A stretch of 64,000 bases of DNA from an uncultured Methanosarcinales archaeon. Lineage in GTDB: Archaea; Nanobdellota; Nanobdellia; Woesearchaeales; GW2011-AR15. The stretch spans positions 93,100 through 157,099 of the forward strand of contig CAZHYZ010000001.1 in NCBI GenBank assembly GCA_964537195.1. Reading direction: 5' to 3'. This document shows, piece after piece, positions 34,175 through 40,501 of the stretch. Position 1 is the first letter of the stretch. Each line of letters opens with the position of its first letter. The notes beneath the pieces were generated by a model, which saw nothing but the letters and a program-made list of their open reading frames with translations, searched no databases and was not told where the DNA came from. The position numbers were made by a program, and so were the translations under genes.

Positions 34175-36601
34175 ATGAAACTTCCAAAGAGATATGATCC
34201 AAAAGAATCAGAGAAAAAGTGGCAAGAATACTGGGAAAAGAACCAAATTTACAAGTTTGATAAAAAAGATACTAAAAGACCACTTTATGTAATAGACACA
34301 CCACCACCAACTGTTTCTGGTGATATGCACTTAGGACATGCTTTTTCATATTCTCAAAATGATTTTGTAGCAAGATATCAGAGAATGACAGGTAAGAATG
34401 TTTTTTATCCTTTTGGAACAGATGATAATGGTCTTGCAACAGAAAGATTGGTTGAAAGAAAAAACAAAATTCGTTCTGTAAATATGAAGCGCTCTGAATT
34501 CATTAAATTATGCCTTACCACTTTAGATAAGATAAGACCGGACTTTATCCAAGATTGGAAAAATATTGGAATGAGTTGTGACTTTTCATTATTCTATTCT
34601 ACTATTAATGACCATTGCCGTAGAATAAGCCAGTGGTCTTTCTTAGATTTATACAAAAGGGGTAGAGAGTACAGAAAAGAAGCACCAACTATGTGGTGTC
34701 CCGAATGCCAGACAGCAATAGCACAGGTTGAGTTAGAAGACAAAGAATTCAAGAGTACTTTTAATGACTTGATATTCAAAATAGGGGACAAAGATTTAAT
34801 TATCGCTACAACAAGACCAGAGTTATTGAGTAGTTGTGTTGCTGTTTTTGTACACCCAGATGATAAACGATATAAGAAATATGTTGGGAAGAAAGCAATC
34901 GTTCCAATATTCAATCATGAAGTTCCTATTTTAGTTGATAAAAGAGCTGATATGGAAAAAGGTACGGGGGCAGTAATGTGCTGTACTTTTGGTGACCAGA
35001 CAGACATTGAGTGGTATAAAGCACACAATCTCCCTTTAAGGATTTCTATAACAAAAGACGGAAGGATGACAAAAAAGGCAGAAAAATATGAAGGAATGTC
35101 TACAAAAGAAGCACGCAAGATGATTATTGAAGACCTGGATAAACAAGGTCTTCTTGTAAAACAAGAACCAATTAAACATACAGTAAATGTTCACGAGCGT
35201 TGTGGAATACCTGTTGAAATCCTAAATACAAAACAATGGTTTATACAATATCTAGATTTAAAAGACCTATTCTTAATAAAAGGGGCAGAGATGAACTGGT
35301 ATCCACAACATATGCGTTCTAGATTAGATAATTGGATAGAAGGATTACAATGGGATTGGTGTATCTCAAGACAGAGACATTTTGGAGTCCCATTCCCTGT
35401 GTGGTATTGTAAGAAATGTGATAAAGAGATTATTGCAAAACAAAAAGATTTACCAGTTGATCCCATGGAGGATAAGCCACCTGTAAAAAAATGTCCTGAA
35501 TGTGGCTCTACAGAATTTATTCCAGAAAAAGATGTTTTTGATACCTGGGCGACATCTTCATTAACTCCAATGTTGGCTGGAGAATTAATTAAAGGAACAC
35601 CTAATTACAAGAAGATGTATCCAATGGACTTAAGGCCACAGGCTCACGACATAATTACTTTTTGGCTCTTCAATACAATGGTTAAAAGTCAATTACACTT
35701 TGATAGAAATCCCTGGGAGGACATAATAATTTCAGGTTGGGCACTTGATCCTCACGGTAAAAAAATGTCCAAGAGCAAAGGCAATGTGATTCATCCACAA
35801 GAGATGATTAAGAAATATTCTGCAGATGCATTGAGATTCTGGGCAGCAGGCTCTAAACTTGGAGAGGATTTACCATTCCAAGAAAAAGACTTAGTTACGG
35901 GCAAGAAAACCATTACAAAATTATGGAATGCATCCAAGTTTTCACTAATGCATTTAGAAGATTACAAAGGAGAAAAGCCAGAACTTGAGGTAATGGATAA
36001 ATGGTTATTAACTAAATTGCAGAAGTTGATTTTTAGTGTTACTGAATCTTTTGAAAAATATGAATATTCAAAAGTTAAACAAGAGACAGAACAGTTTTTC
36101 TGGAATGTCTTTTGTGATAATTATCTTGAGATTGCTAAAGATAGGCTCTATAATCCTGAACAGCATAGAGAAGGTGCAAGAGAATCTGGCCAATATGCTC
36201 TTTATGAAGCCTCACTTAACATATTGAAGTTATTTGCTCCAATAATGCCTTACATAACAGAAGAAATCTACCAGTTATATCATGCAGAAAAAGAGAAATT
36301 ACTTAGCATACATGTATCTCAATGGCCACAGTTTAATGAAAAATTAGTATATAATGATGCAGAGAAAACAGGAGATTATGCTGTAGATATAATCTCTGCC
36401 GTTAGAAAGTTCAAATCTGAAAAAAATCTCTCCTTGAAAACAGAGCTTAAGATGTTGACAATTGAATGTTCTAAAAGGGTTAGAGAATTGCTTGAATTAA
36501 TATTGGGAGATTTATCTGCAACAACAAAAGCTAAAGATATTGAATTTGGAAAAGCAGATTTACAAATAAATGATAAAATAAAATTATCTATTGAATTATA
36601 A
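34175..36601 (+). CDS. valS: Valyl-tRNA synthetase (class I aaRS). Start preferred at MKLPKRYDPKE after the RBS aaaggtga; the ORF track starts at 34121.
   Basis: PPPTVSGDMHLGHA (HIGH) and KMSKSKGN (KMSKS). Editing-domain-sized insertion. Confidence 0.8.
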   Translation: MKLPKRYDPKESEKKWQEYWEKNQIYKFDKKDTKRPLYVIDTPPPTVSGDMHLGHAFSYSQNDFVARYQRMTGKNVFYPFGTDDNGLATERLVERKNKIRSVNMKRSEFIKLCLTTLDKIRPDFIQDWKNIGMSCDFSLFYSTINDHCRRISQWSFLDLYKRGREYRKEAPTMWCPECQTAIAQVELEDKEFKSTFNDLIFKIGDKDLIIATTRPELLSSCVAVFVHPDDKRYKKYVGKKAIVPIFNHEVPILVDKRADMEKGTGAVMCCTFGDQTDIEWYKAHNLPLRISITKDGRMTKKAEKYEGMSTKEARKMIIEDLDKQGLLVKQEPIKHTVNVHERCGIPVEILNTKQWFIQYLDLKDLFLIKGAEMNWYPQHMRSRLDNWIEGLQWDWCISRQRHFGVPFPVWYCKKCDKEIIAKQKDLPVDPMEDKPPVKKCPECGSTEFIPEKDVFDTWATSSLTPMLAGELIKGTPNYKKMYPMDLRPQAHDIITFWLFNTMVKSQLHFDRNPWEDIIISGWALDPHGKKMSKSKGNVIHPQEMIKKYSADALRFWAAGSKLGEDLPFQEKDLVTGKKTITKLWNASKFSLMHLEDYKGEKPELEVMDKWLLTKLQKLIFSVTESFEKYEYSKVKQETEQFFWNVFCDNYLEIAKDRLYNPEQHREGARESGQYALYEASLNILKLFAPIMPYITEEIYQLYHAEKEKLLSIHVSQWPQFNEKLVYNDAEKTGDYAVDIISAVRKFKSEKNLSLKTELKMLTIECSKRVRELLELILGDLSATTKAKDIEFGKADLQINDKIKLSIEL

Positions 36602-39600: not shown

Positions 39601-40501
39601 CAACATCAGAACCACATTTTCTCTTATTGGAACCCACACATATTTCTTCTTCTTCTTCACTAGCCAAAACACAATTGCTTGTATCTCTTTTGCAGCTACT
39701 GGTGCATATTAAGTTTCCACTTGAATAAATGCTGTTAAAATTTTTACAAGTTCCGTCATATATTCCAAAATCTTTTGTATCACATTCTTCTCCAAAATTT
39801 TTTATAGTGTTTCCACACTCATCTGGTATTTGTTCACCTTCACTAGGATCTGTTTCCTCTTCAGTTGGTACACATTTATTTTCAACAGGATCACATTCAT
39901 AACCCTCGCCACAAACACAACCATCTCCACAATCATTTGGTGGACAGGTTTCCTGTTCAGGTTCATCTTGATAGCATGTGTTTGTCTCTAAATCACATTT
40001 TAAATCATCGCTCGGACAAGGATTATCTTTGTCACAAGAAAATATTGAAAAAAGTGGCTTTGCCCCTCCAGTCCCACTAGGGACACATTGATTGCTCTGA
40101 ACATCACAAACCAAGCCTTCTCCACAATCCTTTTTTTCTGGCCTACAAATCGCGTTTTCAGTACAAAGACCATACTTACAACCCTCTCCACACCCAATTT
40201 GTCCGCATTGTTGTGCATCAGTCACTGGAATCTGAGTTAAAGGTGGTCTTTCTTCATCTCCCTCATCACTCTCTTCACAAAAATCCAAATAACAGCAATC
40301 AGGGTGAGAAAGTTTCTCTTCTCCACCACTTACAACAATACAATCTCCTGAGCTTTCTATTCTGTAGTATAAGTAATTTTCATTATAATCATTACATTGA
40401 TTGAACATTTTAAGGGTGGTACAGATTACTGGATCTGCAATCACAAACGTACTCAATGCCATAAACAACAGAAACAATATCACAACCTTTTTTTTATTCA
40501 T
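36596..40501 (-). CDS. Giant (1301 aa) secreted protein with ~20 thrombospondin type-3 calcium-binding repeats, N-terminal Cys-rich/MopE-like modules, a C-terminal TM anchor and a short cytoplasmic tail
   Basis: Sec signal [24 protein letters not shown]. Repeated [55 protein letters not shown] units. TM [18 protein letters not shown]. Converges on valS. Confidence 0.7.
   Translation of the reverse strand: [1301 protein letters not shown]
37573..37672. repeat. 100-nt perfect intragenic direct repeat (copy 1; copy 2 at 38341..38440; partial third copy at ~38777..38830) inside the TSP3-repeat gene
   Basis: gttttggattatatatttctgggcaattgtcaactatatcttggaaaccatctccatcagaatcagttgagcatgaagagtcaaagtcgcaagcatctcc is identical at both sites. 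Confidence 0.8.

Follow-up and report, generated by a model that had tools for sequence, protein, structure and literature searches.

Among the closest described counterparts of the protein analyzed here are the thrombospondins (TSP) and the cartilage oligomeric matrix protein (COMP), whose type-3 repeats are built of motifs termed N-type and C-type, a nomenclature that is retained below. An existence attached to other cells is presumed for the DPANN archaea, and few of the proteins that make such contacts have been characterized. Each motif of the thrombospondin type-3 repeats holds two Ca2+ sites (PMC12960193), and proteins with similar repeats have been reported among the giant proteins of Omnitrophota and in marine ammonia-oxidizing archaea (PMC6593220). 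A functional precedent is Myxococcus TraA, in which a variable head sits on a Cys-rich presentation stalk (PMC12045341). Here we describe a gene from a 64,000-nucleotide stretch of an archaeal contig (CAZHYZ010000001.1, positions 93,100 to 157,099; ‘the window’ hereafter) that encodes a protein of 1301 amino acids (aa) in which a thrombospondin type-3 (TSP3) array of near-invariant length connects a putative membrane-proximal base to a variable, Cys-rich N-terminal region. The original prediction, made from the sequence alone, called this protein ‘giant’; with 1301 aa, it is large only.

The identity of the array is clear. The Pfam family TSP_3 (PF02412) matches the protein in 13 stretches with 191.6 bits, far above the cut-off of 25 (E = 1.3e-57), and a phmmer search of all PDB chains returns only COMP (2.2e-31), TSP-2 (9.4e-29 and 1.2e-28) and TSP-1 (7e-16). 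These scores point to genuine homology beyond a mere likeness of composition and bear out the TSP3 assignment made earlier. The bacterial model TSP3_bac (PF18884) and OmpA have no match in the query at E<=1. The array consists of 624 aa, that is, 48% of the protein and not most of its length as had been thought. It contains 15 DNC[PAV]xxxNxxQ cores with the spacing (43,43,42)x4+43,43, which amounts to 14 full units of 43 or 42 aa preceded by an initial C-type motif. Counted as motifs, the array has 15 of the C-type and 14 of the N-type, a total of 29 predicted Ca2+-binding motifs and about double the 13 of vertebrate thrombospondins. The repeats of the original prediction are real but their number, given there as ~20, has to be corrected accordingly.

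Read against the COMP and TSP-2 alignments, the 43-aa unit is composed of an N-type motif (13 aa), a 7-aa CPxDxxN insert and a C-type motif (23 aa). Each third unit is 42 aa long and differs in that its N-type motif reads DCDxDN and its insert is of the DSSCST type, so that the three-unit phasing results in a 128-aa super-repeat present in ~4.7 copies. The phasing is also reflected in the similarity between units within the query, which is 62% identity for units in the same phase versus 44% for units in different phases. The predicted pattern of Ca2+ ligands is well preserved, with 15 of the 15 cores conforming to DNC[PAV]xxxNxxQx[DC], 14 G[DN]xCD motifs and 27 DxDxD-like motifs. The amino acid composition is extreme: Asp makes up 25.5% of the array, and the complete protein contains 16.5% Asp, 9.7% Asn and 8.4% Cys (109 Cys overall). 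Compared as DNA, the units share only 61–77% identity and recur with periods of 129/129/126 and 384 nucleotides, and Tandem Repeats Finder detected no tandem array in the repeat region. Because the units have diverged to this extent and no DNA tandem array is detectable, the array is ancient and not an artefact of assembly.

The cysteines of the array are no less regular. Cys3 and Cys23 occur in every one of 143 units of 43 aa drawn from 16 proteins, and in the same set Cys26 and Cys40 are either both present (137 units) or both absent (6 units), without a single case of one being lost alone. The 42-aa units have Cys14 together with the Cys of the insert (position ~29) in 60 of 60 cases. From this co-variation, two disulfides are predicted for each unit, Cys3–Cys23 and Cys26–Cys40, one of which would be the thrombospondin pair, with the other belonging to the insert that is absent from the metazoan repeats. 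For the 42-aa units, a Cys14–Cys~29 pairing is predicted.

Structure prediction gives a compatible picture. The AlphaFold2 model of units 6–11, obtained with a 14-row in-register alignment (A2) in which the ligand columns are invariant, has a predicted local distance difference test score (pLDDT) of 73.7 and a predicted template modelling score (pTM) of 0.41, and contains essentially no helices or strands. When compared with the PDB using Foldseek, the model retrieves only TSP-2, COMP and TSP-1 (E from 7.8e-14 to 6.9e-5), followed by the TSP3 region of a bacterial OmpA (5WTL), a weak match (E = 3e-3, probability 0.35). The local fold of the array is accordingly modelled as thrombospondin-like.

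The protein is not an isolated oddity. An identical protein (P0001) is present in the NCBI database on a 222,708-bp contig, and P0002–P0006 are 53–58% identical to the query across 68–77% of its length; MBN2367528.1 (P0006), the closest named relative, is annotated as ‘thrombospondin type 3 repeat-containing protein [Candidatus Woesearchaeota archaeon]’. Together with P0121, P0123 and loci found in genomes, 15 relatives were counted, and all have the same layout. The relatives that bear a record title all come from archaeal metagenome-assembled genomes, and 10 loci were located in 8 archaeal species-representative genomes that are labelled archaeon, Nanoarchaeota, Woesearchaeota or, in the case of third-party annotation (TPA) bins, ‘Methanosarcinales’. 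Two of these genomes hold two paralogues each (L003 with L008 and L004 with L005). The claim that such an array is unusual in an archaeon does not stand, given these 15 relatives, one of them already annotated, and the reports on marine ammonia-oxidizing archaea (PMC6593220).

The traits that define the family, namely 15 C-type cores at the (43,43,42)x4+43,43 spacing, a beta-sandwich with the YYQNIPKC motif and a transmembrane (TM) segment, are all found in the query. Each of the relatives contains 14–15 recognizable cores in the same 43/43/42 phase, and in the complete members with all cores recognized, the array spans 596–612 aa. The region preceding the array, by contrast, ranges from 441 to 1250 aa across the family, a roughly threefold variation; in the query, 454 aa precede the first DNC core, compared with 808–1250 aa in P0002–P0006. 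The near-constant span of the array next to such a variable N-terminal region suggests a length-constrained stalk combined with a swappable head. Between relatives, units in the same position are 61–65% identical and those in other positions 48–53%. Strict positional orthology of single repeats is only partly seen, as a unit is often most similar to a different unit of the same phase, and some homogenization of the repeats within a phase is suggested.

Within the N-terminal region, the unconserved part is the distal head. When aa 1–334 were compared by BLASTP with 14 family members (a fragment and the 15 relatives without their two duplicates) and with all fetched proteins, the alignments began only at ~aa 246–288, and aa 1–245 were similar to none of these sequences. 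Word-indexed searches with the head and with the C-terminal 236 aa missed even the query itself, which reflects the limit of their sensitivity and is no evidence of absence. Pfam searches of aa 1–451 yielded no EGF or coiled-coil family at E<=10, a threshold at which the head itself has no Pfam match of any kind. The neck that follows the head has two stretches, within aa 288–451, similar to the MopE-type ‘putative metal-binding motif’ (PF11617), at 26.6 bits just under the cut-off of 27 (E = 7e-6), both of which lead into a CG..GEC..G.Q.C.NGEW..C module. This region draws hundreds of matches to MopE proteins (PF11617) and is conserved among the relatives. The head is lineage-specific, with the neck, the stalk and the base being conserved. 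The N-terminal Cys-rich motif cited in the original prediction lies at aa 340–351, and the repeat unit quoted there as an example at aa 510–564.

On the other side of the array lies a putative beta-sandwich domain with the conserved motifs YYQNxPKC, DPxIAW and TYDVEG and two conserved cysteines (Cys1156 and Cys1205). No Pfam or NCBIfam family covers this domain, and its identification as a TSP_C-like lectin was considered and rejected, there being no TSP_C match. The domain itself is widespread: in an exhaustive profile search, 459 cluster representatives carried it at E<=1e-3 and 176 still did so at E<=1e-10. It usually sits 100–200 aa from the C-terminus, and the sampled carriers bear PKD, MopE, VWA or DUF4215 passenger domains. 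In 139 of 149 domain-bearing proteins (P0121–P0269), a TM segment is found within the last 150 aa. These features make the domain a probable reusable, membrane-proximal base of a surface-display cassette. Within the window, an hmmsearch of all open reading frames (ORFs) of at least 60 aa led to the rejection of further copies of the domain.

The anchor proper is a hydrophobic segment with a Kyte–Doolittle 19-residue maximum of 2.18 at aa 1234–1252, followed by a tail that is conserved in P0002, P0005, P0006, L007 and L008 and absent from P0003 and P0004. The tail has only sub-threshold Pfam matches (E = 0.08–0.2). Its C-terminus, VLKRL, belongs to an [ILVM][ILVM]x[KR][LI] type (ILKKL, IIKRL and ILQRL in other proteins) that is found in 21 of the 149 anchor-domain proteins compared with 0 of 114 controls. 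An archaeosortase sorting signal (PGF-CTERM and relatives) is not indicated, with no NCBIfam CTERM match and a conserved tail of 55 aa following the TM segment. At the N-terminus, the n, h and c regions of a Sec signal peptide can be recognized by inspection of the sequence, with a hydrophobicity peak of 2.88 at aa 7–21. The export signal, the TM anchor and the short tail, here K/E-rich, that were originally predicted are all recognizable, and the predicted topology is that of a type I membrane-anchored surface protein (Table 1).

Table 1. Features of the TSP3-repeat gene and its upstream region (positions in the window).
Feature	Position	Strand	Protein segment	Basis or remark
Whole gene	36596..40501	minus	1301 aa + stop	ORF list, ATG start
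Sec-type signal peptide (putative)	40436..40501	minus	aa 1–22	MNKKK start, cleavage before DP; by inspection
Lineage-specific Cys-rich head	39641..40435	minus	aa 23–287	small CxxC/CGxGC-type modules
Conserved Cys-rich neck	39179..39640	minus	aa 288–441	two putative MopE-type motifs
TSP type-3 array	37307..39178	minus	aa 442–1065	Pfam TSP_3, motif spacing
Membrane-proximal beta-sandwich domain (predicted)	36827..37306	minus	aa 1066–1225	conserved motifs, 2 conserved Cys
Transmembrane anchor (predicted)	36764..36826	minus	aa ~1226–1246	sequence inspection and hydropathy
Cytoplasmic K/E-rich tail (predicted)	36599..36763	minus	aa 1247–1301 (55 aa)	sequence, partial conservation
Intergenic region, 81 bp, divergent	40502..40582			between the TSP3 gene and 40583–42436

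The function that we favor, with a confidence only slightly better than even, is that of a fixed-length stalk stiffened by Ca2+ and disulfides, which stands on the beta-sandwich base and presents the variable Cys-rich head to a cell or a substrate. After export via the Sec signal, the single C-terminal helix would hold the protein in the cytoplasmic membrane, leaving the 55-aa tail in the cytosol. Outward from the membrane, the order would be the beta-sandwich base, the 624-aa stalk of 29 motifs, the neck with its putative MopE-type motifs and the lineage-specific head. Each motif would wrap its Asp and Asn side chains around Ca2+, as in the solved TSP and COMP wires, and the two disulfides per unit would staple the loops. 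With two sites in each of the 29 motifs, up to ~58 Ca2+ ions could be bound, a count that is an upper bound because some motifs, e.g. in unit 9, are degenerate. When loaded with Ca2+, the stalk would be a stiff rod devoid of secondary structure that fixes how far from the membrane the head is held, and the head would make the contact with the host, a partner cell or the substrate. The Ca2+-dependent spacer or adhesin that was proposed originally remains the most reasonable function.

Besides the degenerate motifs, several observations weigh against this reading. The thrombospondin wire wraps around a lectin domain and is not a free rod, and such a domain is absent here. The structural model has a low pTM (0.41) and a global TM-score to the TSP structures of ~0.22, so that the overall path of the chain is not comparable with theirs. 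The 109 cysteines would need an extracytoplasmic oxidizing system. Finally, the strictly conserved number of repeats suits a structural component of the envelope at least as well.

This last point leads to the main alternative, that of an envelope structural protein, in which the TSP3 array would serve as an anchored ruler or strut spacing the membrane from an outer protein layer, comparable to SlaB, the S-layer stalk of Sulfolobales. Apart from the near-invariance of the repeat number, phase and span over the 15 relatives from several genomes, this possibility would fit the type I arrangement, in which a beta-sandwich sits next to the membrane, and the position of the gene next to that for valyl-tRNA synthetase (ValRS), which is conserved in three related genomes. 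A part of a lattice, however, would not be expected to have a distal head that is wholly unconserved and varies about threefold in length, nor do the paralogue pairs in two genomes sit well with such a role. Given also that no similarity to known S-layer families was found in Pfam or NCBIfam, and that the same anchor module bears adhesin-type passengers (PKD, VWA) in other proteins, we consider a strut unlikely, if respectable.

A more specific and rather doubtful version of the presentation stalk would tie it to the life style of DPANN. Under this proposal, the Ca2+-dependent array, with its invariant 15 units phased in triplets, would be a molecular ruler that sets the gap between the episymbiont and its host, the hypervariable head would fix host specificity, the conserved ...ILK[KR]L tail would couple the contact inward, and the cassette of beta-sandwich, TM segment and tail would serve DPANN generally as a surface-display anchor of a kind not described before. 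Even short of this proposal, the family represents a conserved and easily recognized candidate for a contact protein, with a fixed-length, putatively Ca2+-binding stalk and a swappable head.

An assembly of the cohesin–dockerin kind, with the Ca2+ loops or the head bound by cohesin or pilin-signal proteins encoded nearby, appears improbable. It is brought to mind by a protein encoded at 27072–27989 that combines a Class_IIIsignal (PF04021) with a Cohesin domain (PF00963), by the pilin-signal protein that is a conserved divergent neighbor of the TSP3 gene in the window and in loci L001 and L002, by the presence of dockerin (PF00404) in some other TSP_3 matches (P0060 and P0074), and by a preprint that classes dockerin and TSP3 repeats together as Ca2+-binding attachment modules (10.1101/2023.11.21.568195). 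The query itself, however, has no match to the dockerin profile, a distance of 9 kb separates its gene from that of the cohesin protein, and the closeness of the genomes suffices to explain the synteny.

A buffer for extracellular Ca2+ or for other divalent or trivalent metals, or a nucleator of minerals, for which the ~58 acidic sites would themselves be the function, is quite improbable. The Asp content of the array, the 29 motifs with conserved ligand positions and the adjoining ‘putative metal-binding’ motifs of the MopE type could be explained in this way, but the fixed repeat number and phase, the disulfide pattern, the variable head and the anchor with its conserved tail are all needless for sequestration, and the Ca2+ ions of the solved thrombospondins are structural (PMC12960193).

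Origin of the array as a eukaryotic extracellular-matrix module acquired by horizontal transfer is highly improbable: although PF02412 was defined on thrombospondins and the best matches among solved structures are COMP, TSP-2 and TSP-1, the CPxDxxN insert and the extra Cys pair are absent from COMP and TSP-2 and present in other prokaryotic proteins, the query scores 508 bits against P0017 and 434 against P0022 compared with 112 against COMP (a rough comparison only, as the array lengths differ), TSP_C, EGF and coiled-coil parts are missing, and the GC content (32–37%) and synteny of the gene are native. The view of the origin of type-3 repeats remains unchanged, these being common in prokaryotes, with no sign of a eukaryotic origin here.

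The archaeal host, as originally predicted, is confirmed by markers in the window that pass the NCBIfam cut-offs, namely uS13_arch (182 bits, cut-off 175.6), uS4_arch (190, cut-off 82) and RNA polymerase subunit D (269, cut-off 153); the window also encodes a protein with a class III signal peptide and an RpoD whose architecture is of the Rpb3 type. Assignment of the host to DPANN, as a Woesearchaeota-like archaeon, is reasonable. The GC content is 29–37% in the window, and that of the gene region does not differ from the rest. The ValRS ORF (34121–36601, plus strand) is convergent with the TSP3 gene, and their 3' ends overlap by 6 nucleotides (36596–36601). As the alignment of orthologues begins at Met19 (MKLPKRYDP), this is probably the start of ValRS. 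The ValRS and pilin-signal neighbors of the TSP3 gene both recur in L001 and L002, a synteny that may reflect relatedness rather than function given that ValRS is 76% identical between these genomes. The A/T-rich intergenic region upstream of the TSP3 gene contains a TTTAAAAA box 24–33 nucleotides from the ATG, which might function as a promoter; a scan for sigma-70 promoters and terminators performed no better than on shuffled sequences, the sigma-70 model not being applicable to archaea.

Proteins with pilin signals and large secreted proteins abound in the window. The genes at 40583–42436 and 42487–44406 (both plus strand) encode paralogues of 617 and 639 aa that have no Pfam family and start with pilin-like class III N-termini (M[RK]K[SA]QSSLF and a hydrophobic helix); in L001 and L002, a homologue of this pair (34% and 32% identical within the first ~300 aa) is divergent from the TSP3 gene. 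Class III signal-like N-termini (K-[AG]-Q or KRG-type) are also seen in many ORFs, at 24583–27989 (plus), 13674–16156 (minus), 1244–1699 (plus) and 8237–12028 (plus), suggesting that the window contains one or two gene clusters resembling those for archaeal type IV pili. The 1478-aa Sec-signal protein encoded at 28048–32484 (plus) contains 9.5% Cys and has no Pfam match; it was rejected as a paralogue of the TSP3 protein, since only the MopE-like motif DGIDNDCDGLIDE aligns (E = 0.02), and it has syntenic counterparts of 948–1180 aa in L001 and L002. A second, different kind of type-3 repeat is found in an 876-aa secreted protein (16153–18783, minus) that matches TSP3_bac (PF18884, E = 4.8e-10) and, more weakly, fn3.

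Among the other genes, that at 1703–5383 (minus), bacterial-looking as well, encodes a 1226-aa protein with an N-terminal TM segment and NlpC/P60 and SLT lytic transglycosylase domains, i.e. peptidoglycan-degrading domains that might target bacterial cell walls. Two adjacent ORFs of ~190 aa (44985–45554 and 45558–46133, both minus) share an N-terminal (I/Y)TEVLLPFLLIFT(I/L) membrane motif, have no NCBIfam match and look like tandem paralogous small membrane proteins. A bacterial-looking aspartyl-tRNA synthetase with a GAD insertion domain (57398–59164, plus) adjoins an archaeal-type PEPcase_2 (55261–56730, plus), and this pair, of aspartyl-tRNA synthetase and phosphoenolpyruvate carboxylase, is adjacent in L001 too.

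In comparison with the solved thrombospondin and COMP structures (1UX6, 1YO8, 2RHP and 3FBY), the query has the same motifs of the N-type and of the C-type, with a Cys pair flanking the motif junctions, but differs in having 29 motifs instead of 13 and a strict 43/43/42 periodicity in place of 23-aa and 36-aa units. All its N–C junctions carry the 6–7-aa insert with the extra Cys pair, so that a gap of 7 residues opens in each unit when COMP and TSP-2 are aligned with it, and the label ‘eukaryote-type’ in the original prediction has to be dropped. Furthermore, the query lacks the TSP_C lectin domain, the EGF repeats and the oligomerization domain, and is predicted to be membrane-anchored, whereas the thrombospondins and COMP are secreted.

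Nor are these repeats normally metazoan with sporadic bacterial homologues, as had been stated, considering that PF02412 arrays are common among the matches, including Bacteroidota proteins of the type IX secretion system (T9SS), and that NCBIfam models for bacterial TSP3 exist. The prokaryotic PF02412 proteins that were retrieved use units of 23, 36 or 43 aa. The 36-aa unit has the metazoan-like N+C arrangement and occurs, e.g., in P0022, P0023 and P0042, which are T9SS proteins of Bacteroidota; P0017, P0057 (a CSLREA protein) and P0054, none of which has the anchor domain of the query, share the 43-aa unit and its CP...C insert. The bacterial TSP_3 array proteins contain 7–21 units, mostly of 36 or 23 aa and variable in number, with T9SS or other sorting and without the combination of beta-sandwich and TM segment. 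In the TSP3 repeats of the bacterial OmpA family (Capnocytophaga OmpA 5WTL, PF18884, the linker of Myxococcus TraB), the Asp-rich Ca2+-binding loops and an intra-repeat disulfide, as reported by Dai et al. (2017), resemble those predicted here, but these repeats are short periplasmic linkers, in contrast to the long and presumably extracellular array of the query. Two NCBIfam models are matched through the repeats. MtsC (NF047638, a cell–cell cohesion MYXO-CTERM protein) reaches 288.8 bits through TSP3 stretches, below its equivalog cut-off of 350. The Omp28-related selenoprotein (NF045500) reaches 315.4 bits in 15 repeat-only partial stretches of its 377-position model; because each stretch covers only part of the model, this match reflects the repeats and not membership in the family.

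With TraA of Myxococcus xanthus, the comparison drawn is one of mechanism and not of homology: a signal peptide, a polymorphic head, a disulfide-rich presentation stalk and a membrane anchor are found in both arrangements, and the length of the TraA stalk matches the intercellular gap (PMC12045341). The TraA stalk, however, consists of Cys-rich beta-hairpins, and the protein is held in a bacterial outer membrane by a MYXO-CTERM lipid anchor. The orthologues from Woesearchaeota and other DPANN, such as MBN2367528.1, have a repeat number and phase identical to those of the query, share its neck, C-terminal domain, TM segment and, in part, the tail, and are encoded beside ValRS; they differ in the head, which is unrelated to that of the query and longer.

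Prokaryotic surface proteins with TSP3 repeats are thus already known as a kind, and relatives of the query have been annotated automatically. What may be new is the 43/43/42 unit with its extra predicted disulfide, the strictly conserved length of the array and the anchor module. The first of these is a prokaryotic variant of the type-3 repeat that carries a clear disulfide prediction. The last, found in 459 protein clusters and covered by no Pfam or NCBIfam model, should be useful for cataloguing the surface proteins that bear it.

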